A stretch of 64,000 nucleotides of DNA from assembly GCA_023898525.1 (NCBI GenBank), contig CP060227.1:173634-237633 (forward strand), given 5' to 3'. Under the pieces are notes generated by a model. That model saw only the letters and a list, made by a program, of their open reading frames with translations. It made no database searches and was not told where the DNA came from. The stretch comes from Candidatus Nomurabacteria bacterium (GTDB taxonomy: Bacteria; Patescibacteriota; Minisyncoccia; Phycocordibacterales; UBA918). Position 1 is the first letter of the stretch. Each line of letters starts with the position of its first letter. The position numbers and the translations under genes were made by a program. Below, piece after piece: positions 38,004 to 63,702 of this stretch.

Positions 38004-38099
38004 ACAACCACTTGAGTCAAACCAGACTTAAGTGGCTAATAGCCAGAACAATCACAATTAAATATTCCGCCGTAGCTCAGTGGTAGAGCAGTTGGCTGT

Positions 38100-38705
38100 G
38101 AACACACCGTGTTTCAAGCCTGATATACTAAATACAATGAGTGTACCAGACAAAAGAACATATGCCGATCGTGCCGAGTATTTGAAAAAAGCTGTTTCTG
38201 ACAGAAGAAGAAAACTGAAGGAAATGGCAATTGAATACGGGGGTGGCAAATGTCAAATTTGTGGTTATAAAAAATGCAAGAGAGCTTTAAGCTTTCACCA
38301 CAAAGATGCTAACAAGAAAGACTTTGGTCTTTCTGCAAAAGGACTCACTAGATCTTGGAATAAGATCAAGAAAGAACTTGATAAATGCATCCTAGTTTGT
38401 GCAAATTGCCACATGGAACTACACGATGGTATCACGCAGCTTCCTACTGAAAAGTAGGTCGAAAACGAGGTGAATTGCTGGAAGCCTTAGCAAGTAATGT
38501 TGCAGGTAATCAGCAGCCAAGCTTGAGTTGAAAAACTCTTGAAGGTTCAGAGACTATCCTTTATGGAGTACCCAGCTCTAGATTTAATTTTCAAAATTTT
38601 GAAAATTAAATCTAGAGCTGGGGAAGCGCCTCGCATCCAACAACAGCAAAAAACTGAAAAGGATGATGATATAGTCCACCCCTTTTAGAAATATTAGGAC
38701 AAGTG
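38100..38705 (+). mobile_element. group I self-splicing intron with embedded HNH homing endonuclease ORF
   Basis: conserved P (AATTGCTGGAAG 38473-84), Q (AATCAGCAGCC 38508-18), R (GTTCAGAGACTA 38545-56), S (ATGATATAGTCC 38665-76) elements; 26-bp perfect P8-position hairpin 38571..38623; intron preceded by U and ends in G. Confidence 0.75.
38137..38457 (+). CDS. HNH (His-Me finger) homing endonuclease encoded in the 5' peripheral region of the group I intron
   Basis: CQICGY...ALSFHHKD...CANCHMELH (four Cys plus HH...N...H); 107 aa from ATG 38137 (ORF track extends upstream via GTG into the tRNA exon). Confidence 0.7.
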   Translation: MSVPDKRTYADRAEYLKKAVSDRRRKLKEMAIEYGGGKCQICGYKKCKRALSFHHKDANKKDFGLSAKGLTRSWNKIKKELDKCILVCANCHMELHDGITQLPTEK

Positions 38706-38749
38706 TAACCAATTGGTCGTAGGTTCGAATCCTACCGGCGGAGCAAATC

Positions 38750-39825
38750 TGAATAATCTCACATACATATGAGACTCCTTAAATAAGGAGTAATGAGAAT
38801 ACATAACATTTTAAGGAACACCAGAGGGTTTGCCAAAGCGGCTGATAGTGCTCTAAAGTGGCAGACAATGAAAAACAAACAGGAGGTCGAAAGAAGAGTT
38901 AAAATACTCACGTTTTGGCAAAAACATGGTACTAATACCACCAAAGATGCTTTTGGCGTATCTAGACCAACTTTATTTAGATGGCAAAAAGAACTAAATG
39001 ATAGTAATGGTAATATCCAAGCCCTAGACCCCAAGAGTACTGCTCCTAAGAAACGAAGAGTGAGACAGATATCACCACCACTAGAGCAAGCTATTATCAA
39101 CTGGCGTACTAAGCGACCACGGATTGGTGGGAAAAAGCTGGTACCGCTATTGAAGAAGGAAGGATTCAAGGTGTCAGTTTCCTATGTTAATCGCTGTATC
39201 AGTGATCTTAAAGAACTAGGTAGACTACCGAATCCAGTTAAGCTCTCTTGGTACGCTAAGAGTGGTACACACAAAGAACAAAGAAAAACCAAGGTTAAAA
39301 AACAAAGAAGACCACAAAAACAAGGTTTGGAGATAGACACTATCGTGAGACACATAGATGGCACTAAACGGTACATACTCACCGCCATAGACATAGAAAG
39401 ACGGTTTGCTTACGCTCGTACTTATACCAGTCATTCTTCAAATAGTGCTCGAGACTTTCTAAAACAACTTATACACTATACCCCTTTTAGTATAGATGAG
39501 ATACAGACTGATAATGGTTCAGAATTCGCTAAATACTTCCACGAAGCTTGTTTAACTCTTAACATCAACCATTATCACACTTATCCACGTTGTCCTAAGA
39601 TGAATGCCTATATAGAGCGATTCAATCGTACCGTTCAAGAAGAACACATTATTTATCACCGATCCCTGCTTCGAGATAGTATTCCTGACTTCAATGATTC
39701 ACTGAATGAATGGTTGTATTGGTATAACCATGAGAGACCGCATGAAGGACTGGGTCTTTTGTCGCCCATGGAGTATTATAGAGAACATTATGAGATAGAG
39801 TCTCAAAGGTGGTGAGATCGTACAA
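38750..39825 (+). mobile_element. IS481-family insertion sequence, copy 1 (1076 bp), inserted 7 bp downstream of the tRNA-Asn 3' end
   Basis: 100% identical over 1076 bp (compared directly in sequence) to 62627..63702; imperfect terminal IRs around TGAATAATCTCAC / GGTGAGATCGTACAA; possible 5-bp flanking repeat AAATC. Confidence 0.8.
38793..39815 (+). CDS. IS481-family DDE transposase (HTH + rve integrase core)
   Basis: DDE triad context: IDTIVRHIDG..., TDNGSEFAKYF, NAYIERFNRTVQEE; YNHERPHEGLG; 340 aa single ORF. Confidence 0.85.
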   Translation: MRIHNILRNTRGFAKAADSALKWQTMKNKQEVERRVKILTFWQKHGTNTTKDAFGVSRPTLFRWQKELNDSNGNIQALDPKSTAPKKRRVRQISPPLEQAIINWRTKRPRIGGKKLVPLLKKEGFKVSVSYVNRCISDLKELGRLPNPVKLSWYAKSGTHKEQRKTKVKKQRRPQKQGLEIDTIVRHIDGTKRYILTAIDIERRFAYARTYTSHSSNSARDFLKQLIHYTPFSIDEIQTDNGSEFAKYFHEACLTLNINHYHTYPRCPKMNAYIERFNRTVQEEHIIYHRSLLRDSIPDFNDSLNEWLYWYNHERPHEGLGLLSPMEYYREHYEIESQRW

Positions 39826-43874: not shown

Positions 43875-44615
43875 ATGAAAAAGGTTTTGGTTTATGGGGT
43901 TTTACCAATAGCTGTATTTTTGATAGTGCTTTATGTATTAGCTTCTTTTACACATACTGGGCGGGTGTGGTCTTTGTATTTTTTGGCGGCGCCGAAGGCG
44001 CCGCTCGCTGTGAAATACGATTGTATCAAAGAGACCAACCAAAAAGTGTACGATAAGTTTCTATTACCACTGGAATTTGATGAAGTATCCAAAAACGACT
44101 TACGAGAGTATTGGCACTTTAGCTATTATCGTGCCTGCCTTTTTAAAGCCGGCTATGACTTTTGGGGTAATGAAATACCACCAACCTCTCTACTACAAAA
44201 AGACAGTCACACAGAATATACCAACTACTTTGCAGACATATCTCTAACTCTCCCCCCTCAAACTAAACTGGCTTTAGACAATGAAGTAAATCCCGACCAT
44301 GATGATTATATTATCGCCTCTATCCTAGAACTAGATGGAAATGAAATTTATATAAATGTTGACCGAAGCTACAAGCCTGCCAATATGGCGACACTGAAAA
44401 ATGAGTTCGCCGGCTTTCAAAGCCAAAAAGATTTTAAGAGCCCTGACTTAGTTTTCCAAAGTGAAACAAAAGAAAACGTAGCTGCTTTTAGTGACGGTAA
44501 ATTATATGGCTACGTAGTACTAATACCAAACCGACATATTGTAAAAATATATACAGACAAAGATGGGTCAGAAACACTAGACCAGATTATGACTACATTT
44601 AAAACTATTGAATAA
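43875..44615 (+). CDS. membrane-anchored hypothetical protein (246 aa)
   Basis: N-terminal TM helix, no motif. Confidence 0.3.
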   Translation: MKKVLVYGVLPIAVFLIVLYVLASFTHTGRVWSLYFLAAPKAPLAVKYDCIKETNQKVYDKFLLPLEFDEVSKNDLREYWHFSYYRACLFKAGYDFWGNEIPPTSLLQKDSHTEYTNYFADISLTLPPQTKLALDNEVNPDHDDYIIASILELDGNEIYINVDRSYKPANMATLKNEFAGFQSQKDFKSPDLVFQSETKENVAAFSDGKLYGYVVLIPNRHIVKIYTDKDGSETLDQIMTTFKTIE

Positions 44616-44693: not shown

Positions 44694-45029
44694 TTAATCG
44701 TCATCATCTTCCTCCTCCCACTCGTCATCCTCGTATTCTTCATCATCTTCCCACTCGTCATCTTCCTCATATTCTTCGTCTTCATATAAACCATTAAAAA
44801 CACTATCATCCACTGGATTAGAAGAAATATCAGCAGAAGTCGGTATTGGAATCGTTTCCAATTCTTCCGGCAACGGGTCAACTTGCTCTATTTCAACACT
44901 AGCGGTAGTGTCATGTATTTCTTTGTTGGCGTTTTTCTTTTTTTCGGCATAACTAGCAAAACCATACGCTAAAATTGCTGTTGCCCCAATCCAGAATACT
45001 ATCAAACTAAGTACAAAAGTCTTTTTCAT
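44694..45029 (-). CDS. membrane-anchored protein with extremely acidic Glu/Asp/Tyr/Trp-rich C-terminus
   Basis: N-terminus MKKTFVLSLIVFWIGATAIL nearly identical in style to the next gene; C-terminal EDEEYEEDDEWEDDEEYEDDEWEEEDDDD. Confidence 0.3.
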   Translation of the reverse strand: MKKTFVLSLIVFWIGATAILAYGFASYAEKKKNANKEIHDTTASVEIEQVDPLPEELETIPIPTSADISSNPVDDSVFNGLYEDEEYEEDDEWEDDEEYEDDEWEEEDDDD

Positions 45030-45039
45030 AATTTATATT

Positions 45040-45900
45040 TTAAGCAGCTACACCGACATAATATTTACTAAGTAATTGGTAAGAACTGGACTTATGCCTA
45101 TGTCCACCGGAAGTTGTACCATTAAATAGTTTAGTCGCATCAATACCACAGTTATTGATAATCCTACTCTTACCACCCGGATGATACGGTATATAGTCAG
45201 TTACATCATACACCTTTCCATCAATCGTCATCCAGCAGTCGGTCGAGCTGTTGTGCTTGGCGACAGTAGCGGCGCTAATCCCCGAAGAGGTCTTGGTGGT
45301 GTTTGTGGTGGTGTTGGTAGTATTAGTTGTATTTGTATTGGTAGTAGTCTTGGTGGTGTTTGTGGTTTGAGTTTTAGTATTGGTTGTACCTGAAGTTGAT
45401 TTAACCTCAACCTTAGGTTTGAAACTAAGATCATTAGTTAAATAATTCTCTACCGACCACCCTCTCGTTCCATCGTCATACGATATTCTGTACCACCAAT
45501 AACCATCAGCAGCTACCGGATCTACCAATACTCTCCCAATGGTACCTGGTAACACTGTACCTACTACCCCTGCTTCAATGGAAGGCTCCTTACGAACCTT
45601 TAAACTTTCCATTGCCATTAAAGTATCAAGATCAGTATATTTGGCCGAATCACTTAGTGTATTATCGCCATTAGATTTTTCTTTATCGCCACCAAATATA
45701 CCTTTGGTAATCTCAGATAAAAAACCATTCCCCTCTTCAGAAACACCTTCTGTATCTTCCACCCTTTCAAGCGAATTCATATCTGAAGACATCAGGCCAA
45801 CCTCCGGCGCAGTATTATCATAAACCACAAAAGCCGCCGCCAAGAGAGCAGTAACCACTGACCAAAAGATTGCAACAAAGATAACGAAAGTTTTTTTCAT
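45040..45900 (-). CDS. membrane-anchored SH3b-like domain / poly-Thr-Asn linker / cytochrome b5-like haem-binding domain protein
   Basis: SH3b-like VRKEPSIEAGVVGTVLPGTIGRV...WWYRISYDDGTRGW; TTNTTKTTTNTNTTNTTNTT linker; b5-like HNSSTDCWMTIDGKVYDVTDYIPYHPGG. Confidence 0.5.
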   Translation of the reverse strand: MKKTFVIFVAIFWSVVTALLAAAFVVYDNTAPEVGLMSSDMNSLERVEDTEGVSEEGNGFLSEITKGIFGGDKEKSNGDNTLSDSAKYTDLDTLMAMESLKVRKEPSIEAGVVGTVLPGTIGRVLVDPVAADGYWWYRISYDDGTRGWSVENYLTNDLSFKPKVEVKSTSGTTNTKTQTTNTTKTTTNTNTTNTTNTTTNTTKTSSGISAATVAKHNSSTDCWMTIDGKVYDVTDYIPYHPGGKSRIINNCGIDATKLFNGTTSGGHRHKSSSYQLLSKYYVGVAA

Positions 45901-45917
45901 AATAAATACATTCTACC

Positions 45918-47234
45918 CTACAAGAGCTTAAATTCTTCGGTATGAATCAAGCGACGCGGTACCCCAGCGGCAGTAAATTGCTTAATTAAACCCTGCATCA
46001 TTGGCGGCGGACCACAGACGAATATGTCAGTGTTGGAAAGGTCACCACTGGTACTCTTTATGACGTCCGCTGACAAAAAACCTTTCTCATCTGATTGATG
46101 AGGAATAATACTAATATTAGAATTTTCTTCACTAATAGCCTTAAGTTCATTATAAAAAACCATTTCATCCTCTGTTTTGGTCGCATAATAAAAATCAATT
46201 ACCAAGTCATCACGTTGATTTACCCTTAAGTTGCGTGCCATGTTAAGAAACGGAGTAATACCAATACCACCTGCTATCCAGATTTGACGCCCGCACTTGC
46301 CTTTAAGATAAGAAAAGCCACCAAACGGACCCTCAATCCTCGCGGTTGCTCCCGCGTTTAAGTACTTAAGTTGACCAGTCCAGTCACCAAGCGCTTTTAC
46401 AGAGATGCGCAAATATTTCTCTGTAGGTGCCGAACTAATCGAAAATGGATGCACTTCTTTGGTCATACCACCATCCACAAAACTAATAAAAATAAATTGT
46501 CCGGGCACATAATGCATTACTTCATTTTCTGGACGCATAACTACCTCAATAATACCTTCCCCTAAATCATTGACCGCTTCAACTATATACGTATATCTTT
46601 TCTTAAACGCATGACCGAGCAGAGTATGATAAATATAAGCAGCAATAGCTAAAGCAGCCAGACTAAAAATATATACTTTAAGCCAAGGATTGATTGACAC
46701 ATCGCTCGGAATCAAAAAAGCATGCAAAGCGCCAAGAAAAAAAGCCCCACCCAAAATCTGATGGGCAAATCGTAAGTACTGATAACGCCACTTGGCGAAG
46801 AAAGTAATAACGAGAAGCGACATCATAAGTAAAAGTCCTAGGATACCGAAGTTTACCGCCCAGTCACCACCAGGAATAAGTAGCTTAGCGGCTTCAACTA
46901 CAGATATAGGCACGAGTGCCACGGCCAGAGCCAATGGGTGCACTAAGATAAAAAGAAAAGCAATCGTCCCAGAATAGTGATGTATCCGATAAACCCGATC
47001 CAGACTCCCAAAGTATTCCTCAAGAAAATGCAATCTGGCACTAAGGATAATTGTAAGAGAAAAAAGTGTAATACCGACAAGAGCAGTTAATTGCCCAACA
47101 CTGGTGAGAGCGGAAAATGAGTCACCAAATCGCATAGACAACGGCATCATGGTGAGCCACATAAACATAGGCAATAAAGTCGCCAAAATAACAACTGTCA
47201 ATCCAACCCGATTTTTAAATATCCTTTGTGGCAT
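45918..47234 (-). CDS. ferric reductase/NOX-like flavocytochrome (6-TM di-haem domain fused to FAD- and NAD(P)H-binding FNR-like domains)
   Basis: His pairs in TM helices (HHYSGTIAFLFILVHP; HQILGGAFFLGALHAF), HPFSISSAP (FAD-binding HPF motif), AGGIGITPF (NAD-binding GGxGxxP). Confidence 0.6.
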   Translation of the reverse strand: MPQRIFKNRVGLTVVILATLLPMFMWLTMMPLSMRFGDSFSALTSVGQLTALVGITLFSLTIILSARLHFLEEYFGSLDRVYRIHHYSGTIAFLFILVHPLALAVALVPISVVEAAKLLIPGGDWAVNFGILGLLLMMSLLVITFFAKWRYQYLRFAHQILGGAFFLGALHAFLIPSDVSINPWLKVYIFSLAALAIAAYIYHTLLGHAFKKRYTYIVEAVNDLGEGIIEVVMRPENEVMHYVPGQFIFISFVDGGMTKEVHPFSISSAPTEKYLRISVKALGDWTGQLKYLNAGATARIEGPFGGFSYLKGKCGRQIWIAGGIGITPFLNMARNLRVNQRDDLVIDFYYATKTEDEMVFYNELKAISEENSNISIIPHQSDEKGFLSADVIKSTSGDLSNTDIFVCGPPPMMQGLIKQFTAAGVPRRLIHTEEFKLL

Positions 47235-47374
47235 ATGTTTTTATGATTATACGCTAAATGGATAAAAAACGAAGAGCCTGAAATCATTTGCTTACAAGAA
47301 ATAAAAGCCAACCTCAGTGATGAGATTAAAAAGATCCACTGATATTACTTATATTTTAATTCCGCCGAGAAAAA

Positions 47375-48829
47375 CTAGTCCGTGGTCTTTACCGCACCAT
47401 TGTCTGATTCGACTGCAGTGGTAGCCACACCAAAGTCATCTAGCAAGTTTTTTCCTGAGTCAACAACCACATCTTCATCAATTTCCAAATCGTTATTAGA
47501 AGTCTCAACAAACTCGTTGGTTGGAGCAAAGATATCCGGTCGCGGGTCACCCTCGACTTTAATAATCGCCCACGCCCCCTTATTCATACGAGCTAGAGCG
47601 TGGTCAACTAAGATGATATTACCTGGTACTTCAGCGGTAAATTCAACAATCGAAGCCCCGCCCGGCAACACCGCGGTAGTTTGGATATTTTGTAGTGGCA
47701 ATGCCCCAATTCCTCCCTCAGCATAAACTAAATCAAAAATCTCACCAATTGGATGGAACGAAGAAATTAAATTCACACCACCATTACCAACGTAAATACG
47801 CACCTTCTCTCCAGTCTTTACTTTCATACGCGGCTCCCCATCCTTTTCAATTCGTCCGTTGAAGGTCACGTAGTTTGGATTACCGTCGAGCAAAGCCTCT
47901 GAGTCAAACACCGTTAGACCCTTTTTACCCAAGGCGCCCTTAGTATATAGTTCGCCTTGTACTAAATAAAACTCTTTATCAACTGGTGGCAGACCTTCCT
48001 TTGGTTCAACCAAAATAAGTCCGTACTGGCCGTGAGAATTGTGAGTACTGACATTCGGCGAGGCGCAGTGATAGATGTATAAACCGGGATTCAAAGCTTT
48101 CCAAGAAAATTGTTTGGTTTCTCCAGGCTCCACAAACGAAAGAGTGGCTCCACCTCCTGGACCTGTAACAGCGTGTAAGTCTATATTATGCCCATGTAAA
48201 CTGGATTCATGATTGGTAATAGTCATCTCTACCGTATCGCCCTCCCTGACTCGAAGCATCGGACCCGGTACCTGCTTATTAAAAGTCCAGTAATTAAAAT
48301 ACACTTCATCAGCCACTTCTGATATTACTTCTTGGGTCACCAATGACACTTTTACCGTTTCACTCCAATCTCTATCAATTGGTGGCGGCACAGCATTTGG
48401 ATCAGCTCCAATGTCATCTACCCACTCAAAATTACTGTAGCCTTGGAAGAAATGTAAAACATTTCTAAAAGGCAAATCTGCCGTATGACCGCCCGGATGA
48501 TAACTGTGCATAAAGGCCGGCATGGCAAAGTGCGGCGGATGAGTTTCGTCACCCCACACGTAAAAAATTCCGCCAGTTATAAAAAGCGCCATGGAGATAG
48601 CCAAAGGTTTTGAATGAAAACGATAAGCCACCCTCGCTACAAAGAAAATCGAGGAGCCGATAAGTAGTAAAATGCCTATTTTTTGGAGTAATTCGTATTG
48701 AATCAACGGAAAAATTTTAAAGAAAGACAAAGCTCCCAAAAGAACCACTACCAGGACTATTGACGCAACAATTATTAAATAAAAAATAAAAGACTTTGAT
48801 CGGCCTTCATTTTGTTTTTCTTCATCCAT
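47375..48829 (-). CDS. nirK: copper-containing nitrite reductase (NirK)-like two-domain cupredoxin protein with N-terminal 3-TM extension
   Basis: SLHGHNIDLHAVTGPGGGA (NirK HNxDxH type-1/type-2 Cu region) and YIYHCASPNVSTH (Cys-His Cu site); axial position appears as Gln rather than Met. Confidence 0.55.
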   Translation of the reverse strand: MDEEKQNEGRSKSFIFYLIIVASIVLVVVLLGALSFFKIFPLIQYELLQKIGILLLIGSSIFFVARVAYRFHSKPLAISMALFITGGIFYVWGDETHPPHFAMPAFMHSYHPGGHTADLPFRNVLHFFQGYSNFEWVDDIGADPNAVPPPIDRDWSETVKVSLVTQEVISEVADEVYFNYWTFNKQVPGPMLRVREGDTVEMTITNHESSLHGHNIDLHAVTGPGGGATLSFVEPGETKQFSWKALNPGLYIYHCASPNVSTHNSHGQYGLILVEPKEGLPPVDKEFYLVQGELYTKGALGKKGLTVFDSEALLDGNPNYVTFNGRIEKDGEPRMKVKTGEKVRIYVGNGGVNLISSFHPIGEIFDLVYAEGGIGALPLQNIQTTAVLPGGASIVEFTAEVPGNIILVDHALARMNKGAWAIIKVEGDPRPDIFAPTNEFVETSNNDLEIDEDVVVDSGKNLLDDFGVATTAVESDNGAVKTTD

Positions 48830-48947: not shown

Positions 48948-49796
48948 TTATTTAAACAATTTAGTAATATCATCAATATACTTGCCGTAGGAGCCGAAGT
49001 TATAAAAACGAGACCACAAGGCCGGTGAACCAAGGTGACTAAGATAATCGAGTAATTTAACTTTACTGCCATCGGGTAAGGTAATAATTTTCATATGCAC
49101 CTTCTCAGACACCAATTGCATCGTACATTCACCAGTCACCGGATCAAAATCATCAAGGTGATGCCAAGTATAACCTTCTGGTTTTTTTGCCAGGTCTGCC
49201 GCGGCGTTAGCCAGCTCATCGTCAACACTTCTGATTCCACTCATCTTAATTTTAATCTTTGCAAAAAAAGACTCGCCTTGATAAATAACCGGTTCTTCAA
49301 GATAGATAGTTTCAGCCAAAGAGGTATAGTCGGGAGCAAAACCACGCTTTGACGCTTTTATTTCTAAACCAAGATACTCACGAGCTTTTTCTACATCAAA
49401 TAACCAACCTTCGTCCTCTAATTCTCTGATTATTTCTCTTATGTATCGTTTCTTGGTCGCTCGTGACAGTCGATAAACGTTCATAAAATTCTCTAGTTGA
49501 GCTTTGGTACCACGACAAAGCATCTCGCCCGCTTCGGTGAAAAGATCGATTCCACCAGAAAACCTTCCCCGATAAACAACCAATCGATAAGCCATCTTAG
49601 TTTCTTTCATGAAAGCCACTGACTCATCTCCAATCGTTCGGAATAATGCAATTGAATTTTCACCGAAAGAATCCATTCCGATAGCCATCACATCTTCCAT
49701 GTAGGCTGGGATATTTTTTGCATATACAAAAACATCTTTAAAGCGCGCTCGCCCATTATCAACAACACCGTAGATGAATTCAATACAAAAAGACAT
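48948..49796 (-). CDS. protein with C-terminal Tox-WHH (HNH/EndoVII-fold) predicted nuclease domain
   Basis: GYTWHHLDDFDPVTGECTMQLVSEKVH matches the WHH toxin-nuclease signature (YTWHH...MQLV...H); N-terminal 200 aa unassigned. Confidence 0.45.
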   Translation of the reverse strand: MSFCIEFIYGVVDNGRARFKDVFVYAKNIPAYMEDVMAIGMDSFGENSIALFRTIGDESVAFMKETKMAYRLVVYRGRFSGGIDLFTEAGEMLCRGTKAQLENFMNVYRLSRATKKRYIREIIRELEDEGWLFDVEKAREYLGLEIKASKRGFAPDYTSLAETIYLEEPVIYQGESFFAKIKIKMSGIRSVDDELANAAADLAKKPEGYTWHHLDDFDPVTGECTMQLVSEKVHMKIITLPDGSKVKLLDYLSHLGSPALWSRFYNFGSYGKYIDDITKLFK

Positions 49797-49798
49797 AA

Positions 49799-51547
49799 TC
49801 AGGTACGTATCTTACAAATAGCACAACCGTCTTCAGCTGTTTTAACCAAAGCCATACCAATATCATCCAGCCAAGATTTTAGTTTGCTACTGGTTGTACC
49901 AATCTTGCCGGCAACCTCTGCAATATACTCCATACCCAAAGTAGCTGCTTTTTCAATGACCAAGAAGATTTCACGAATAGCAGTACGAATCGCTGCTCTG
50001 CCACCTCTTAGGACACTGATGATTTTTCTAATAATTGGCAGTATGGTTTCAATAGAAAATTTAGTAATTCCACCTAGAACTGTATTGATTGAAGCTTTCA
50101 AAAAAGCTAGCACATCCTCTCCTATCTTACCCATCTTGGTGAGAAGCGAACTTACGCTACTCATACCACCGGAAGAAATAAGACCTACCACCAATTCCAC
50201 TATAAAACCAACAATCGCGCCGACCATATACGCTACTTTATCAAGCGTGATATCAGCAGTAAGAGCACTGAGATTGAAACTACTAACTTCTTCTACAATA
50301 GTATCTATCGCCTCGCTAAATATTCCGGAAATATCTGCACTTAAAACCGTCTGCACCATTTCATCAAGTATCTCTAGAGCTTCTGGTATTACCGTCGCGG
50401 CATTTTTAATCGCTTCCCCCGCCGCTCCTAGAGCGACAAAGATCCAACCAAGAAGATCGATAAGTCCAAGTACCGCTTCAACCAAAGCATTCCAAAGACC
50501 ACAAAAATAAGCGTTAATAGCACTAATTACTTGCTCACCAACATCAGCCAAAGCTCCGACCGCCGCCTCAACCTTAGCGGTCAATTCGGCGGCAAAGATA
50601 TCTACCTTGGCAAACACGCTATCTAAAATATAAGTGATATCTTCAGATTGCACCAAAACTGCAGCGTATGATTTTGACATAGCGGTCCGAACATATGACT
50701 CTAAATCTCGTTTACGACTATCAATCTCAGCTCTAATGGTACGACTAATATCTTCAATTAAATCTTCGGATAAAGATTCAAAGGAATTAACAGCTAGGTT
50801 TGAGTAGTGAGTAAGAATCGGCGAATAACCAGCCTTGCTTGAATCCCAATGCTTTTCTTTAAACTTGACCTTATCTCGCAGAAACTCGGTAACCGCTAAA
50901 ATACCGTCTCCAACAAGGGAGTAAGCGCCTGACAGCAGTACTGTCTGCCAGTTGAGGATCATCAAGAAAGTAGCCAAAAATTCCATTGATGGATCCTCTA
51001 TCCTACCGGTACGAATCAGCTCTGATATTTCTGCACCGGTAAAATCAAGACTGTATCCTTGGTCATTTTGATTTATAAGACTAATGATTTCCATTTGCTC
51101 ACCATCAAAACGAGCCGCTTTTTCCCTGAGACCTTCCAGCTCATTCTTGAAATCATCACCAACCGCAATATAAGCCGTGCGTCCACTAAACAAATCCTTA
51201 CTATTATCTTCTAAGAACAAGCATATTTCATTTGACAGAGGCTCGGCGGCCGTAAAAGCCTCCTTAAGATAACCAGCATCGCGCGATACAAAGACCCACA
51301 CCTTATACTGATACTCACCCGGATCCAATGTCTTATTTCCATCTCTATCCATGAAAGCCCAAAATTCCTTAACCAATGGGGTTGATACATTTGTCTCTGC
51401 CACCAACTCAACACCACTAACTTCTTCGCTCTCAGCACTACCGAAATAATATTGTTTTATATCATCACTACCAAGACTAAAGGGCGAATCAGCCAAAGGG
51501 CTAGTGTAACGCAAGGTTGCCAGATCTTTTTCTGAGGATAAGGACAT
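49799..51547 (-). CDS. 582-aa hypothetical protein with long Ala/Ile/Val/Gly/Glu-rich amphipathic and hydrophobic helical C-terminal half
   Basis: operon partner (3-nt gap to the WHH gene, 17-nt gap to the 1126-aa gene); hydrophobic helices such as VGAIVGFIVELVVGLISSGG. Confidence 0.35.
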   Translation of the reverse strand: MSLSSEKDLATLRYTSPLADSPFSLGSDDIKQYYFGSAESEEVSGVELVAETNVSTPLVKEFWAFMDRDGNKTLDPGEYQYKVWVFVSRDAGYLKEAFTAAEPLSNEICLFLEDNSKDLFSGRTAYIAVGDDFKNELEGLREKAARFDGEQMEIISLINQNDQGYSLDFTGAEISELIRTGRIEDPSMEFLATFLMILNWQTVLLSGAYSLVGDGILAVTEFLRDKVKFKEKHWDSSKAGYSPILTHYSNLAVNSFESLSEDLIEDISRTIRAEIDSRKRDLESYVRTAMSKSYAAVLVQSEDITYILDSVFAKVDIFAAELTAKVEAAVGALADVGEQVISAINAYFCGLWNALVEAVLGLIDLLGWIFVALGAAGEAIKNAATVIPEALEILDEMVQTVLSADISGIFSEAIDTIVEEVSSFNLSALTADITLDKVAYMVGAIVGFIVELVVGLISSGGMSSVSSLLTKMGKIGEDVLAFLKASINTVLGGITKFSIETILPIIRKIISVLRGGRAAIRTAIREIFLVIEKAATLGMEYIAEVAGKIGTTSSKLKSWLDDIGMALVKTAEDGCAICKIRT

Positions 51548-51563
51548 GGGAAATTAAAATTGA

Positions 51564-54500
51564 TTATGGGTTTTCATCCGTATCGGTATCAGTGTCGACA
51601 TCTGTATCTGCATCCTCATCGGTTTCGTCGCTGCTTGACCCACCCAAGACAGAGGAAGAACCGAGCAATTGTGTGTCACCCTCGTACTTTCCACAACACG
51701 GCAAACCTTCATCATCCAGATAAACAGAATTGCCCTGAATAATGGTTAACGAAGTTGGAACCCGAGTTTGCCACTCTTCCTCAACAAAACCTTCCACCTC
51801 AGCCAACTCCTCTTCAATTGAAAGATAAAGATCATCATCAGTCTCGATTACCAAGTCTCCTCCGTTCCAGATGTCACCAGTCTCTAAATAATAATCAATC
51901 GCTGATTCAAAACCGATGCGTACCGGCACCACCACTCGCGCCATACCACTTTGCAAGAAAGCTTCAAAAGTCTCGTCTGATTCGTTCAGAGTATTTACCA
52001 AATTAGCCCAGTCACACTTACCGGCCCAGTAGTAAGGATAAAATAGATACGACATAATACTCCAATCAAAAGCTTGTTCGAAGAATTTCACATGTGATGA
52101 ATACTCTTCCCAACTTGAGCTTTGGTTTACTTGTGGCACGTTACAGTACATACTATCTTGGTAAAAATCTTGTCCCTGAGTTATTCCAAATGGGCTAGTC
52201 AACATCTCTATTGCCACTCGTTTGATCTCTCGCTGCTCAATACTACGGTATGAGCTAGACGGAATCGCCCCAGCCACCTCTTCCTCACTACTACTTAGAG
52301 CCGCTTCTTGCTCGGCCACATCACTCTCATATTCACGAAGCGCCTCTTCGTAAGCATCAAGCAGACTGTCATAAGCATCAGATTGCCAAGCTGCATACTC
52401 ATCAGGATCAATCTCACAATTCAAGGTAACATTTAAACTGTAGCTTAAAGTACGATGTCCGGAAATTGCCACCTCCACCAAGTCACCAATTGGCTCATCC
52501 ATGTTTAAGGTAAATGAATAATCCTTATGTCTATCATCATTACCGCTTCCTTTAACATCTTTTGTCCAAACCTCACTTCCAACAGTAATTCGCCAGTTGG
52601 TGCCAACATTCTTTTTTGAATCATAACGAAACGAAACACTGACATTAGCACTGGTACACTGATAGCCAGCCGGTAGAGCAACTTGCCCACCACCGGTGAA
52701 TTCGTCACCTTTATCTAAATTTGAAGCATTATATGTCTTAGAGGTCGAACTGGTTTCCGTCTCTGGAGCACTGATAGTAATACCATATTCGGCTGCTAAT
52801 TCTTCGTAGTTTGGCTCATCATAACCCTCGATATCAGATGGTCCCTTAATACCCAGATCTGCCAAAGTTGGTGGTGGAGTAATGCTGGCGATTTCTTCTT
52901 CAGTTACACCACTAGCTTCTAGCGCTTGCTGTTCTAGAGCAAATTTATAAAACTTAGCCGGTTCAGGAATCAAGAATTCTACCATCAGTCGCTTGCCGTA
53001 GTTTATAAGTCGATTAACATAAACAATATCGATCCAACGATATACACCGGTCACATGTTCGTCACCCTCACGGTTGTCATAGCCATGACGGTTGTTTTCC
53101 TCATACTCTTCAAGCATTTTGACAGTTCGTTTATAAGAGGTCTTTTGAACAATACGTTCAAGCGCGTTGTTTACCACTTCTTCAGCATAAGTCTTGGCGT
53201 CAGTGTCTGAGGTGGAAGCAGAGTTAGCAGAAGCGTAATCAAAATTACCTTCCGCCGATACAGTAACGCCCATATACTCACCAGACACACCAGCCGAGGC
53301 TCCCGCCCCAAGATCCGTCCCCTTTTCCAGCACCTTAGCAATTTCTGACTGCAACTCATTGCGTACCGTTGATGAAGTGTCGGTCTGATTTTCAACTTCA
53401 GATTCAGTTGACTCTTCAGTGGTAGTCTCAGTCGATGACAGAGTTCGAGTATGTCGCTCTTTGTACTCACGTGCCATAATATTTTCAATCCGTGATACTT
53501 CACCCGGCACATAACAACAAACCTCTTGTTCAACCTTACGGAAAATACCAATCCCGAGTCGATTAACCCCATACAATTCGGTTGATCCCTCCTCAGTTTC
53601 CTCTGTCTCTTCGGTTTCTTTAGTGCCTTTGCCAACACCAATTGAAGGTAGTTCAGGTATTATGTTTGGAATCTCGAGCTCCATTTCAGATCCATCATCG
53701 AAAATAAATTTACCGGTAAAACCAAAATTATCATCGGTTGAAGTGTCTATGTCCTTACCTGGAAAAAGTTTAAGGTTCAACAGACTATCGTCATTCTCCA
53801 CTATCTCCACCTCCTTTCCTGAAGCGACTTTTGTATTACCTTTCTTTAAACTATAAGAAACTGAGGTGGGCTTGGCCCCAACTGTGTTAGTGTTAAGAGT
53901 AAGAAAAACATCCGACCCAAGGTCATCTGCTTCGCTTATAGTTAAGTAAGAGGTAAAAGGTTTTATGTCTGCATTACCGTCATACCGCAGAGCCCCAGTA
54001 TCTCTAGCTACACTATGCAGTTCGCTCCGAGTCCGACGGATAGAGCTATTCAAGTCACTTTCCAGTGCTGTAACGGTTTTCTTTTTAGTGTTGCTGCGAT
54101 CAAAAAAATCCTTGGCGGTGGTACTTAAAGATATCTTTTTGGATACAATTTCTGATCCAACAGCCGCAATCGTAGCATCCTCATCAACCTTACTACTCAC
54201 TAAAGATACGTCATTCTTTAGAGTTTTATAAGTATTTAAACGACTTTTGCCACGCGCCATCTTTTGTGAACGACCAAAACGATCCAATATACCCCCTTTA
54301 CCAAAACCAGAACCAGCTGAGGTACTACTATCGGTTTGTCGTTCGGTCGAAAAGGCCTTTGGTATCACCACCTTAGCATTAGCCAATCGACGCAGATAGA
54401 GTTCGACCCGCTTCTCTTTTGACGGCGACTTTGGAGTCCGCGGAGTTTCTATCAACTCAACTGCCAAATCTTTAAAATCAGTTTCCTTAAAGTGGTACAA

Positions 54501-54944
54501 GAAATTATCCGCTACTAAAAGACGACTGCAAGCCTGCCTAGTGACCGGCGAGTCTCGTACAATAAGTTGATAAAAAAGGTTATCCCACACAACCCGAGCG
54601 TTCTTTGCGCTAAGACCATTTAGACCAGCCAGCTTTTTCTCTACATCAGCTAAAGTAATACTGGCTCGCCGTTTAGAAAGCCAATGCGAAAAATCATATA
54701 ATCCTGGTGCCAATTCCCGGACCTCTCGATAAGTTTTTATCGACTTGAATTTTTTAGCGGCTGACTGCAATTCTTCTCGGGCCGTCGGCAAATCATCGCT
54801 AAGGTCTTTAATGATCAAACTTTTAGCACTTAATTCAGAAGATATATAAATAAAACCCGAATCACGGCGGGCAGGGTCTAAAAGTTGAGGTGTTCTAAGG
54901 GTAAAAAAACGAAAAAGATCGCTAGTGACAGGTCGTTGTTGCAT
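51564..54944 (-). CDS. 1126-aa hypothetical protein with acidic DTDVDTDTDTDENP C-terminal tail
   Basis: long uninterrupted ORF with no recognisable motif, first gene of the three-gene operon. Confidence 0.4.
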   Translation of the reverse strand: MQQRPVTSDLFRFFTLRTPQLLDPARRDSGFIYISSELSAKSLIIKDLSDDLPTAREELQSAAKKFKSIKTYREVRELAPGLYDFSHWLSKRRASITLADVEKKLAGLNGLSAKNARVVWDNLFYQLIVRDSPVTRQACSRLLVADNFLYHFKETDFKDLAVELIETPRTPKSPSKEKRVELYLRRLANAKVVIPKAFSTERQTDSSTSAGSGFGKGGILDRFGRSQKMARGKSRLNTYKTLKNDVSLVSSKVDEDATIAAVGSEIVSKKISLSTTAKDFFDRSNTKKKTVTALESDLNSSIRRTRSELHSVARDTGALRYDGNADIKPFTSYLTISEADDLGSDVFLTLNTNTVGAKPTSVSYSLKKGNTKVASGKEVEIVENDDSLLNLKLFPGKDIDTSTDDNFGFTGKFIFDDGSEMELEIPNIIPELPSIGVGKGTKETEETEETEEGSTELYGVNRLGIGIFRKVEQEVCCYVPGEVSRIENIMAREYKERHTRTLSSTETTTEESTESEVENQTDTSSTVRNELQSEIAKVLEKGTDLGAGASAGVSGEYMGVTVSAEGNFDYASANSASTSDTDAKTYAEEVVNNALERIVQKTSYKRTVKMLEEYEENNRHGYDNREGDEHVTGVYRWIDIVYVNRLINYGKRLMVEFLIPEPAKFYKFALEQQALEASGVTEEEIASITPPPTLADLGIKGPSDIEGYDEPNYEELAAEYGITISAPETETSSTSKTYNASNLDKGDEFTGGGQVALPAGYQCTSANVSVSFRYDSKKNVGTNWRITVGSEVWTKDVKGSGNDDRHKDYSFTLNMDEPIGDLVEVAISGHRTLSYSLNVTLNCEIDPDEYAAWQSDAYDSLLDAYEEALREYESDVAEQEAALSSSEEEVAGAIPSSSYRSIEQREIKRVAIEMLTSPFGITQGQDFYQDSMYCNVPQVNQSSSWEEYSSHVKFFEQAFDWSIMSYLFYPYYWAGKCDWANLVNTLNESDETFEAFLQSGMARVVVPVRIGFESAIDYYLETGDIWNGGDLVIETDDDLYLSIEEELAEVEGFVEEEWQTRVPTSLTIIQGNSVYLDDEGLPCCGKYEGDTQLLGSSSVLGGSSSDETDEDADTDVDTDTDTDENP

Positions 54945-60293: not shown

Positions 60294-61290
60294 CACCCTA
60301 ATTGCACAGGTCAAGATGACATACATACTGCTTTTGTATGTCACACAAACAAATAGGACCGGAAGACTGGCCGGTTATTTCACGTATGCTCAAAGCGGGA
60401 TACTCAGGAGTGGAGATTGCGCACATTATCAACAAAGATCCAAGTGCGGTTAATAGACATATTAAAGCGTATGGTGGTCGGGATAGATACGATGCTCGCG
60501 AGGTTCGCAGAAAGAAAAAACAGGCACGTATCATTGCTATGGAAGGTACTAGAATACTCAAAGGAGTATTATTACGAGAAGTGAAACGATTATTAAAACA
60601 ACACTACTCACCGGAACAGATAGTCGGAGTACGTGATGACATCTCTGCGAGCACTATCTACCGATACATTAACGAACGAGCTCCACACCTTAAACAATTT
60701 CTTCGTTCTCAGAAAGGCAAGTATCGGCGCAAACGAGGCACCAAAATACGTGAAAAAGTTCGTGAAAGAGCCAAGAAACGTCGTATTGATGAACGACCGC
60801 CCATTATTGAACGTCGCTCCCGTTTGGGAGATTGGGAGGGAGATACTATGCTGGGAAGAGACAAACGAGTACGTATTGTCACCTTCGTTGATCGCAGAAG
60901 CGGGTATCTAATTGCGTATCTTCTGCCAAAATTAAATGCTACTTTACTCACTAAACTGGCGGTGGAAAAATTCAGGCGTATACCCAAAAACAAACGAAAG
61001 ACCGCTACCTTTGATAACGGTACCGAGTTCAGTGACTGGGAACGGTTTGAGAAACAAACGAGTATGACTGTGTACTTTGCTTATCCATACCACTCTTGGG
61101 AGCGTGGTACCAATGAAAATACTAACGGGCTACTTCGACAATATTTTCCGAAAGACTTGGATTTCAACACCATTACTCCACAAGAACTTTCTGAAGCGGT
61201 TCGTCGTATAAATCATCGTCCTAGAAAGAGACATAATTTCAAGTCTCCACATCAGATATTTTGGAAGTGATGGTCTGTGCAATTAGGGTG
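60294..61290 (+). mobile_element. IS30-family insertion sequence (997 bp) with 16-bp perfect terminal inverted repeats CACCCTAATTGCACAG; an extra 15/16 copy of the left IR lies at 60271..60285
   Basis: IR at 60294..60309 equals the reverse complement of 61275..61290; contains a single IS30-type transposase ORF. Confidence 0.75.
60338..61270 (+). CDS. IS30-family DDE transposase
   Basis: N-terminal HTH; DWEGDTM (first Asp), FDNGTEF (second Asp), ENTNGLLRQYFPK (Glu), INHRPRK; 310 aa. Confidence 0.85.
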   Translation: MSHKQIGPEDWPVISRMLKAGYSGVEIAHIINKDPSAVNRHIKAYGGRDRYDAREVRRKKKQARIIAMEGTRILKGVLLREVKRLLKQHYSPEQIVGVRDDISASTIYRYINERAPHLKQFLRSQKGKYRRKRGTKIREKVRERAKKRRIDERPPIIERRSRLGDWEGDTMLGRDKRVRIVTFVDRRSGYLIAYLLPKLNATLLTKLAVEKFRRIPKNKRKTATFDNGTEFSDWERFEKQTSMTVYFAYPYHSWERGTNENTNGLLRQYFPKDLDFNTITPQELSEAVRRINHRPRKRHNFKSPHQIFWK

Positions 61291-62626: not shown

Positions 62627-63702
62627 TGAATAATCTCACATACATATGAGACTCCTTAAATAAGGAGTAATGAGAATACATAACATTTTAAGGAACACCA
62701 GAGGGTTTGCCAAAGCGGCTGATAGTGCTCTAAAGTGGCAGACAATGAAAAACAAACAGGAGGTCGAAAGAAGAGTTAAAATACTCACGTTTTGGCAAAA
62801 ACATGGTACTAATACCACCAAAGATGCTTTTGGCGTATCTAGACCAACTTTATTTAGATGGCAAAAAGAACTAAATGATAGTAATGGTAATATCCAAGCC
62901 CTAGACCCCAAGAGTACTGCTCCTAAGAAACGAAGAGTGAGACAGATATCACCACCACTAGAGCAAGCTATTATCAACTGGCGTACTAAGCGACCACGGA
63001 TTGGTGGGAAAAAGCTGGTACCGCTATTGAAGAAGGAAGGATTCAAGGTGTCAGTTTCCTATGTTAATCGCTGTATCAGTGATCTTAAAGAACTAGGTAG
63101 ACTACCGAATCCAGTTAAGCTCTCTTGGTACGCTAAGAGTGGTACACACAAAGAACAAAGAAAAACCAAGGTTAAAAAACAAAGAAGACCACAAAAACAA
63201 GGTTTGGAGATAGACACTATCGTGAGACACATAGATGGCACTAAACGGTACATACTCACCGCCATAGACATAGAAAGACGGTTTGCTTACGCTCGTACTT
63301 ATACCAGTCATTCTTCAAATAGTGCTCGAGACTTTCTAAAACAACTTATACACTATACCCCTTTTAGTATAGATGAGATACAGACTGATAATGGTTCAGA
63401 ATTCGCTAAATACTTCCACGAAGCTTGTTTAACTCTTAACATCAACCATTATCACACTTATCCACGTTGTCCTAAGATGAATGCCTATATAGAGCGATTC
63501 AATCGTACCGTTCAAGAAGAACACATTATTTATCACCGATCCCTGCTTCGAGATAGTATTCCTGACTTCAATGATTCACTGAATGAATGGTTGTATTGGT
63601 ATAACCATGAGAGACCGCATGAAGGACTGGGTCTTTTGTCGCCCATGGAGTATTATAGAGAACATTATGAGATAGAGTCTCAAAGGTGGTGAGATCGTAC
63701 AA
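62627..63702 (+). mobile_element. IS481-family insertion sequence, copy 2 (identical to copy 1, same orientation)
   Basis: 1076 bp identical to 38750..39825 by direct comparison; flanks differ; possible short flanking repeat AGCTT/GCTT. Confidence 0.8.
62670..63692 (+). CDS. IS481-family DDE transposase (identical to 38793..39815)
   Basis: identical 340-aa translation. Confidence 0.85.
   Translation: MRIHNILRNTRGFAKAADSALKWQTMKNKQEVERRVKILTFWQKHGTNTTKDAFGVSRPTLFRWQKELNDSNGNIQALDPKSTAPKKRRVRQISPPLEQAIINWRTKRPRIGGKKLVPLLKKEGFKVSVSYVNRCISDLKELGRLPNPVKLSWYAKSGTHKEQRKTKVKKQRRPQKQGLEIDTIVRHIDGTKRYILTAIDIERRFAYARTYTSHSSNSARDFLKQLIHYTPFSIDEIQTDNGSEFAKYFHEACLTLNINHYHTYPRCPKMNAYIERFNRTVQEEHIIYHRSLLRDSIPDFNDSLNEWLYWYNHERPHEGLGLLSPMEYYREHYEIESQRW

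Follow-up and report, generated by a model that had tools for sequence, protein, structure and literature searches.

We analyzed a 64,000-nucleotide (nt) stretch of the genome of a Candidatus Nomurabacteria bacterium (GenBank assembly GCA_023898525.1, contig CP060227.1, positions 173,634 to 237,633), here called the window, and in particular three neighboring minus-strand open reading frames (ORFs) that encode membrane-associated redox proteins. Read in the direction of transcription, these are a membrane-anchored, two-domain copper nitrite reductase, NirK (47375-48829, 484 amino acids [aa]), a flavocytochrome b of the SpNOX-like or pFre type (45918-47234, 438 aa), and an anchored protein that joins an SH3b domain, a Thr/Asn linker, and a cytochrome b5 domain (45040-45900, 286 aa). 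The original prediction had placed such a redox trio in a genome of the candidate phyla radiation (CPR) type, and our analysis confirms both points, as the three ORFs give domain matches far beyond chance and contain the sequence motifs that had been quoted for them, and as exactly these proteins have been deposited from a Candidatus Nomurabacteria metagenome-assembled genome (MAG), GCA_020632175.1, under the names nitrite reductase, ferric-reductase-like protein, and SH3-domain protein. The predicted cofactor ligands of all three proteins are intact, with Gln at the axial position of the NirK type 1 copper, and we regard all three as genuine redox proteins.

NirK scores 320.8 bits against the NCBIfam model TIGR02376, for which the equivalog cutoff is 296.3, and its best matches among solved structures are PhNiR (2zoo; E = 1.6e-103) and the Neisseria gonorrhoeae enzyme AniA (1kbv; E = 5.6e-100). 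It aligns with these class II enzymes over about 300 residues without significant gaps in the two-domain core, is about 60% identical to both across that core, and has in common with them the SSFH[VIP] signature and all type 2 copper and catalytic residues. Both of these enzymes have Met as the axial ligand, AniA being a lipoprotein and PhNiR having a cytochrome c fused to it, whereas the window protein has a three-helix anchor, a His/Met-rich linker, an axial Gln, and no fused donor domain. We followed the copper ligands through an alignment with the 120 closest database homologs plus AniA and PhNiR and through a species-level set of 82 sequences, consisting of the window protein, the NirKs of 80 loci from species-representative genomes, and AniA as a reference. 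The equatorial type 1 ligands H214, C255, and H263, the type 2 ligands H219, H254, and H410, which match those of AniA, and the catalytic residues D217, H359, and I361 are invariant in both sets. Missing type 2 histidines would have pointed away from a genuine NirK, and all three are present.

The axial position of the type 1 site departs from this pattern, since the usual Met is replaced by Gln268 (codon at 48026-48028 on the minus strand), as the original prediction had read it. Gln is found there in 120/120 of the closest homologs and Met in the references AniA and PhNiR, while the 82 species-level sequences divide into 46 with Gln, 34 with Met, and 2 with Leu; in these alignments, the axial Gln defines a putative clade of NirK within the CPR. 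An axial Met is usual but not obligatory for NirK, because TsNirK of Thermus scotoductus (6hbe), which has a natural His2-Cys-Gln type 1 site like that predicted around Gln268, is an active nitrite reductase (PMC6400189). TsNirK is the single precedent for a natural Gln-coordinated type 1 site in NirK, the corresponding M150Q substitution being known only as an engineered variant. The two proteins are distant (E = 1.3e-36), however: TsNirK is a soluble, three-domain enzyme in which an extra C-terminal cupredoxin shields the Gln site and in which Ser stands for the catalytic Asp and Val for Ile, whereas in the window NirK both Asp and Ile are retained and the extra cupredoxin is missing.

The CPR (Parcubacteria) NirK clade described by Danczak et al. 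in 2017 (PMC5581439) is the same family, with the type 2 site and catalytic residues conserved and with an electron donor that was left unresolved there too. The type 1 ligands were stated to be conserved in that study, whereas the window NirK combines an axial Gln with a Met/His-rich linker. Its supplementary alignment contains 5 sequences with HGQYG and 32 with HGMYG, the Gln-bearing CPR sequences passing unremarked, and the paper discusses neither the Gln and linker nor the N-terminal membrane anchor. One scan confirmed 582 NirK-bearing CPR genomes, and the closest homologs found for the window NirK are mostly CPR sequences, from Paceibacteria/Nomurabacteria-type MAGs. The closest homolog from another genome (574 aa; 78% identity; locus L170, 178-1902; protein P0002) carries a META domain (PF03724) fused at its C terminus. 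The two membrane-anchored relatives with an axial Leu, in loci L055 and L078, have a noncoordinating residue of the kind typical of high-potential laccases.

The anchor of the window NirK comprises residues 1 to 93 (48551-48829, minus strand), which an AlphaFold2 (AF2) model folds into three helices at residues 3-31, 33-67, and 74-93, in line with the three membrane segments that had been read from the sequence at the outset. In a simple hydropathy scan, two segments stand out as strongly hydrophobic, while the third is too weak to be picked up. The model is moderate because the underlying alignment is shallow (mean predicted local distance difference test [pLDDT] score, 69.6), and we took from it the number of helices and the disorder of the linker but no contacts. 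There are clusters of basic residues at the N terminus and in an RVAYRFHSK loop before the third helix, which under the positive-inside rule places the catalytic domain on the outer side of the membrane; the cytochrome b5 domain discussed below is likewise predicted to face outward.

Between the anchor and the catalytic core lies a His/Met-rich linker (residues 96-119; 48473-48544, minus strand) that starts with THPPHFAMPAFMHSYHPGGH. The model gives pLDDT values below 50 over the His/Met segment (residues 97-119), followed by the cupredoxin core. In Gln-axial NirKs this segment has the consensus TYxPxFAMPxFMHSHAPGG, and among the 82 species-level sequences its FAMPxFMH motif occurs in nearly all Gln-axial relatives and is absent from the Met-axial ones, which have an unrelated YPFxLxTFGP segment in its place. 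Searched exhaustively by itself, the part that comprises anchor and linker (residues 1-137) gave 13 weak matches, mostly to short fragments, which indicates that the anchor is not a module common to other enzymes. From its composition and its covariation with the axial Gln, we speculate that the linker might be a Cu(I)-binding or donor-docking segment. While NirK as such is a known CPR protein, the recognition of a large CPR subclade with a predicted Gln axial ligand and a covarying Met/His linker is new.

The second protein of the trio has the Pfam domains Ferric_reduct (PF01794), FAD_binding_8 (PF08022), and NAD_binding_1 (PF00175), and its best solved structure is the Streptococcus pneumoniae protein SpNOX (8qt6; E = 5.7e-33, residues 53-433 aligned). 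Its predicted heme ligands, H85/H99 in transmembrane (TM) segment 3 and H158/H171 in TM5, with spacings of 14 and 13, align with SpNOX H69/H83/H129/H142 and are invariant in 32 homologs, as are the HPFSISS motif for flavin adenine dinucleotide (FAD) and the GGIGITPF and CGPP motifs for NAD(P)H. A 6-TM di-heme domain fused to FAD- and NAD(P)H-binding domains had been foreseen for this gene, and the three Pfam domains, the quoted motifs, and the SpNOX match bear this out. The similarity to SpNOX (8qt6 and 8qq7) is modest (E of about 6e-33) but extends over nearly the whole protein; SpNOX is of the same length class, with 6 TM segments, four His that bind two b hemes, and a domain for FAD and NAD(P)H. 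As the production of superoxide from O2 has been questioned as the physiological reaction even for SpNOX, we refer to the window protein as NOX-like or pFre rather than as an NADPH oxidase. The family of about 435 aa to which it belongs is widespread in the CPR and also occurs in some DPANN archaea, and the closest homologs found are mostly CPR sequences.

The third protein carries a Cyt-b5 domain (PF00173) at 75.8 bits, against a gathering threshold of 23.7, and an SH3_3 domain (PF08239; residues 99-154) at 34.1 bits, against a threshold of 27. Its single N-terminal anchor (residues 5-23), Thr/Asn-rich linker (residues 165-205), and C-terminal b5 domain are arranged as the original prediction had described them. 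The best solved structure for the b5 domain is bacterial cytochrome b558 of Ectothiorhodospira vacuolata (1cxy; E = 2.2e-15), with whose heme ligands H240 (in HPGG) and H269 (in RHKSS) align. Cys222 and Cys251 also align with the two cysteines of b558. In b558 these two cysteines reportedly form a disulfide. While b558 is a small, soluble periplasmic protein, the b5 domain in the window forms the C terminus of a membrane-anchored SH3b fusion, and the SH3b domain, judging from its family, probably binds the cell wall. The low-complexity linker limited a word-index search with the complete SH3b-b5 sequence to four other proteins, and a hidden Markov model built from the b5 domains of the fetched loci was used instead.

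All three genes lie on the same strand, with 140 nt between NirK and the NOX-like gene (47235-47374), 17 nt between the NOX-like and b5 genes, and 10 nt between the b5 gene and a following 111-aa ORF (44694-45029, minus strand). No terminator-like site was found in the 140-nt gap, which folds no better than shuffled sequence (z = 0.13), and the gap contains a perfect TATAAT (47246-47251), 11 nt before the start codon of the NOX-like gene. Consensus scans for promoters and terminators gave counts that did not differ from those in shuffled sequence. The 111-aa ORF is probably in the same operon as the b5 gene. Its N-terminal anchor (MKKTFV...FW; MKKTFVLSLIVFW) is almost identical to that of the b5 protein, and runs of D and E make the C-terminal half extremely acidic; the ORF matches no Pfam family and has no homolog in any fetched locus outside this organism.

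To see how these genes are arranged elsewhere, we compared the 80 NirK loci of other species, including flanking sequence of up to 10 kb on either side, with 87 NOX-like loci (80 from metagenomes and 7 from assemblies). A full-length NOX-like gene lies within 10 kb of NirK in 0/80 of the NirK loci, NirK occurs in 0/87 of the NOX-like loci, and the NOX-like/b5 pair is absent beside the three closest NirK relatives examined (P0002, P0004, and P0005). The original prediction had named a lack of coconservation elsewhere as grounds for its refutation, and the idea of a compact, coconserved three-gene module is thus not supported. Common neighbors of CPR NirK (for example, in L003, 11796-16319, and in L172) are a ribonucleotide reductase (19/80), an ArsR-family regulator with a CPDC motif (16/80), and a PNPOx-like protein (12/80), none of which is present in the window; an FNR-like reductase of about 235 aa is found in 5/80. 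These neighbors hint at a possible nitrite- or NO-responsive regulon that includes ribonucleotide reductase. Any gene with a b5 domain is found in 3 of the 80 NirK loci. In these three, a protein of about 695 aa is encoded beside a Gln-type NirK (L003, 16341-18425; L029, 7087-9183; L053, 7711-9810), which joins an N-terminal domain of about 5 TM segments to a cytochrome b5 domain and to a beta-propeller of the cytochrome d1 type (PF02239; E of about 1e-70). The fusion of b5 with a cd1-like propeller is unusual, NirS-type proteins carrying cytochrome c. We considered these proteins as split analogs of NOX; their membrane domain has two conserved His, but no similarity to ferric-reductase domains was found.

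The arrangement that does recur is that of the NOX-like gene with an anchored b5 gene. The latter lies directly downstream on the same strand in 4/4 independent close contexts, and 8 of the 20 best metagenome loci have the pairing, as do scattered loci among the weaker matches. The gaps between the two genes are mostly -4 to +41 nt, and the partners all begin with MKK and a hydrophobic anchor and contain one to four b5 domains, often together with SH3b; their b5 domains have in common both heme histidines and the two cysteines that align with b558. Judging from these neighborhoods, the conserved unit is the NOX-like gene with a downstream gene for a predicted anchored b5 protein, not the trio. 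A preprint (bioRxiv 10.1101/2021.11.17.468889) has described ferric-reductase-domain and b5-domain genes within 10 kb of each other as a CPR-specific combination whose function it calls unknown, present in 185 of the 1,427 CPR genomes that encode the domain and in none outside the CPR. With a gap of 17 nt, the window contains a pFre/cytb5 pairing in this sense. The preprint is centered on the MAPR-like cytb5MY, however, and makes no mention of nitrite, NirK, or SH3, whereas the partner in the window is a single classical His/His b5 domain with SH3b and NirK lies directly upstream. The ancestral state proposed in the preprint, with an adjacent two-component system and genes for the MAPR-like cytb5MY, CBLA, and CBLB, is not seen beside the pair, whose scanned neighbors (within about 5 kb) contain no response-regulator or kinase domains; one relative, L086, has two response regulators, as in the preprint's description. 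Each of the two units is of a CPR family already known from databases and literature, and what is new is their juxtaposition, seen in one genome, and the description of the b5 partners as predicted anchored, often multi-b5 proteins with SH3b.

A convergent gene for a 246-aa anchored protein (43875-44615, plus strand) extends the conserved unit. Its homologs in L086 (E = 5e-84) and L083 (E = 7e-50) come right after the b5 gene, and in these two loci the NOX-like, b5, and 246-aa genes form a syntenic block in the absence of both insertion sequences (IS) and NirK, and since this gene is kept next to the NOX-like/b5 pair in relatives, we take it to mark an ancestral block. The simplest history would be that the block of three genes is ancestral and that NirK and the toxin cassette upstream of it were joined to it by local rearrangement.

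Taken together, we consider it moderately probable that the locus consists of two independently conserved CPR membrane redox units that have come to lie side by side, and not of a dedicated three-gene module. In the first unit, NirK would be held in the membrane by its three N-terminal helices with a catalytic trimer outside the cell (the structure prediction is of a monomer only), where nitrite would be reduced to NO at the type 2 copper. In the second, the flavocytochrome would reduce its FAD with a hydride from NAD(P)H in the cytoplasm and pass single electrons via two stacked b hemes across the membrane to the outward-facing b5 domain, which would be tethered by the flexible Thr/Asn linker, with the SH3b domain probably on the cell wall. 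We infer that the b5 protein is the acceptor of the outer heme. Such a role fits what has been reported for SpNOX, namely, an exposed outer heme, direct reduction of cytochrome c, and the suggestion of a potential protein acceptor; no linked gene for a protein acceptor has been reported for SpNOX, whereas in the window and in other CPR genomes an anchored b5 gene follows immediately. The E. coli MsrPQ system works on the same principle, in that a membrane heme protein with a ferric-reductase domain feeds an extracytoplasmic protein partner, but MsrQ has no dehydrogenase domain, and its partner is a molybdoenzyme without sequence relation to the b5 partner.

A lineage-specific rearrangement would then have put NirK directly upstream of the NOX-like/b5 pair, and in this organism the tethered b5 domain may reduce the Gln-type copper site, giving a chain from NAD(P)H through FAD, two hemes b, b5, and Cu(Gln) to nitrite. 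An axial Gln generally lowers the potential of blue copper sites, as in stellacyanin and axial-ligand mutants. A lowered copper potential in NirK would fit a low-potential heme-b donor more closely than it would the high-potential cupredoxins or cytochromes c that are the usual donors. The chain would be an electron sink independent of quinones and cytochrome c, serving the regeneration of NAD(P)+ or the handling of nitrite, and it would not conserve energy, because an outward movement of electrons combined with the use of protons outside opposes the membrane potential.

A possible alternative, which we consider less likely than not, is that the pair serves some other role, that NirK is fed by a different donor, such as a small cupredoxin, and that the two are neighbors by coincidence. 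The pair might then serve the reductive acquisition of iron or copper, the reduction of O2 or of oxidized cell-surface components, or the export of electrons to a host cell. The pair is widespread without NirK, SpNOX is promiscuous toward its acceptors, and the SH3b partners with several b5 domains, which resemble wires, suggest a reach through the cell wall; moreover, a cupredoxin was present in every nirK-bearing bin studied by Danczak et al. (PMC5581439). In one context (L088, 1308-2132), genes for an FTR1 iron permease and a rubrerythrin/ferritin-like protein lie three to four genes upstream of the pair, which is compatible with a putative role in reductive iron uptake. However, the pair in the window has no iron-uptake genes as neighbors, SpNOX is slow in reducing ferric iron directly, and most contexts have no gene for a specific alternative acceptor beside the pair.

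That the three proteins instead form a dedicated NAD(P)H:nitrite oxidoreductase, with one chain encoded in one transcription unit here and assembled in trans from unlinked genes in other CPR bacteria, appears rather unlikely to us. In favor of it are the common strand, the gaps of 140, 17, and 10 nt in which no terminator was found, the predicted extracytoplasmic position of both NirK and b5, and the general expectation that a Gln-type copper favors a low-potential donor. The literature assigns neither an electron donor to CPR NirK nor an acceptor to the SpNOX-type proteins, b5 proteins of another architecture stand beside Gln-type NirK in L003, L029, and L053, and one MAG, CAZLLR01 (GCA_964560655.1), has both systems. 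In that MAG, one contig (L045) has the gene for an anchored NirK and a second contig (L085) has a NOX-like gene together with a b5 partner of 296 aa, which implies that the two systems can coexist unlinked, but its NirK is of the Met-axial type. The adjacency is absent from 80 + 87 + 3 other loci, an internal -10 hexamer precedes the NOX-like gene, and b5 genes near NirK in 3/80 loci are about what chance would give in genomes of about 1 Mb.

For the same organism, a functional coupling between NirK and the NOX-like/b5 pair is in our view doubtful, and several points weigh against it. The case for it comes from a single adjacency in one organism, and as NirK-bearing CPR genomes number in the hundreds, a lone adjacency by chance would not be surprising. 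The perfect -10 hexamer before the NOX-like gene allows its transcription separately from NirK, and at least one MAG, CAZLLR01, keeps the two on different contigs. The argument from copper and heme potentials is one of general cupredoxin chemistry and not of data on this enzyme, and export and heme loading of the b5 domain outside the membrane are assumed by analogy with periplasmic b558. The claim that candidate electron donors are encoded beside NirK stands in part, as the chain is chemically plausible and both NirK and b5 are predicted to face outward, while the adjacency itself is seen in one genome only.

The original prediction had further placed the trio on an island bounded by IS elements and had suggested that it was acquired horizontally as a nitrite- or metal-reducing module. 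The description as IS bounded is literally true. Two copies of an IS of 1,076 bp, each encoding a 340-aa rve/HTH_32 transposase, are 100% identical, lie in direct orientation (38750-39825 and 62627-63702, both on the plus strand), have imperfect terminal inverted repeats, and bracket 22.8 kb. Copy 1 is flanked by ATC/ATC and copy 2 by GCTT/GCTT, and no target-site duplication common to the outer ends of the segment was found, the outer flanks being ...AAATC and GCTTTT.... A direct repeat of its own at each copy, with unmatched outer flanks, indicates two separate insertions. The G+C content is uniform at about 0.40 to 0.42, with values of 0.39 to 0.43 inside the IS-flanked segment and 0.40 to 0.44 in most 1-kb windows outside, and neither the composition nor the closest homologs of NirK and the NOX-like protein give a signal of a foreign donor. 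Import of the trio as a composite transposon is thus largely refuted and, in our estimate, very improbable: identical direct copies that flank the segment, an IS30-like gene and a toxin cassette inside it, and the position of copy 1 against a tRNA gene would fit it, but the separate flanking repeats, the uniform composition, the mostly CPR homologs, and the NOX-like/b5/246-aa block that is syntenic in relatives without IS give no evidence for it.

It is equally improbable that the Gln-axial, anchored enzyme is primarily an oxidase or acts on some other substrate, for although its axial ligand and linker are unlike those of characterized two-domain NirKs and CPR bacteria are without the rest of denitrification (PMC5581439), its three type 2 histidines and catalytic Asp, His, and Ile are invariant, its core is about 60% identical to AniA and PhNiR, and TsNirK reduces nitrite with a Gln-coordinated type 1 site (PMC6400189).

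Several other features of the window were noted in passing. The IS30-like integrase gene within the IS-flanked segment is at 60338-61270. Directly upstream of NirK, a three-gene cassette (48948-54944, minus strand) encodes proteins of 1,126 aa and 582 aa that match no Pfam family, followed by one of 282 aa that ends in a WHH/colicin-DNase nuclease domain; the cassette looks like a putative polymorphic-toxin system, and none of the fetched loci outside this organism contains a homolog of it. IS copy 1 starts about 5 nt after the 3' end of a tRNA gene (38066-38745, plus strand) that a group I intron of some 600 nt interrupts (Rfam RF00028; 69 bits; core, 38388-38698). Only once the intron is removed does ARAGORN find this tRNA, as tRNA-Thr(UGU) or tRNA-Asn(GUU), depending on which of two equally canonical splice junctions is used, and a 125-aa ORF (38080-38457) begins within the 5' exon, 15 nt from the start of that exon, and extends into the intron's 5' half. 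At the start of the window, a 66-nt direct repeat, 94% identical between 313-378 and 1170-1235, spans the 3' end of the ORF at 1170-2267 and the sequence just downstream of the ORF at 377-1114, which suggests that these adjacent minus-strand ORFs may be a tandem paralog pair.

Two questions left open in the literature meet at this locus, namely, which electron donor serves CPR NirK in genomes that lack an electron transport chain (Danczak 2017) and to which physiological acceptor the SpNOX-type "NADPH oxidases" of bacteria pass their electrons (Hajjar 2017; Dubach 2024). The locus sets candidates for both answers side by side, and as they are three small proteins, the link is directly testable. 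In its broadest form, the proposal would be that CPR bacteria, which have no quinones or c-type cytochromes, run a minimal, previously unrecognized export chain from NAD(P)H through the NOX-like protein and a wall-tethered b5 to an anchored NirK, whose copper has been retuned for a low-potential heme by the exchange of Met for Gln together with a coevolving Met/His linker. We consider this unlikely, and more so than a coupling confined to this organism; if true, it would name both the physiological acceptor of bacterial NOX homologs and the donor of CPR NirK. Whatever becomes of the link to the NOX-like/b5 pair, the NirK clade with its stellacyanin-like His2-Cys-Gln site provides material for the study of axial-ligand tuning, and the outside-anchored, often multi-b5 SH3b partners point to heme-b electron export in organisms without cytochrome c maturation.

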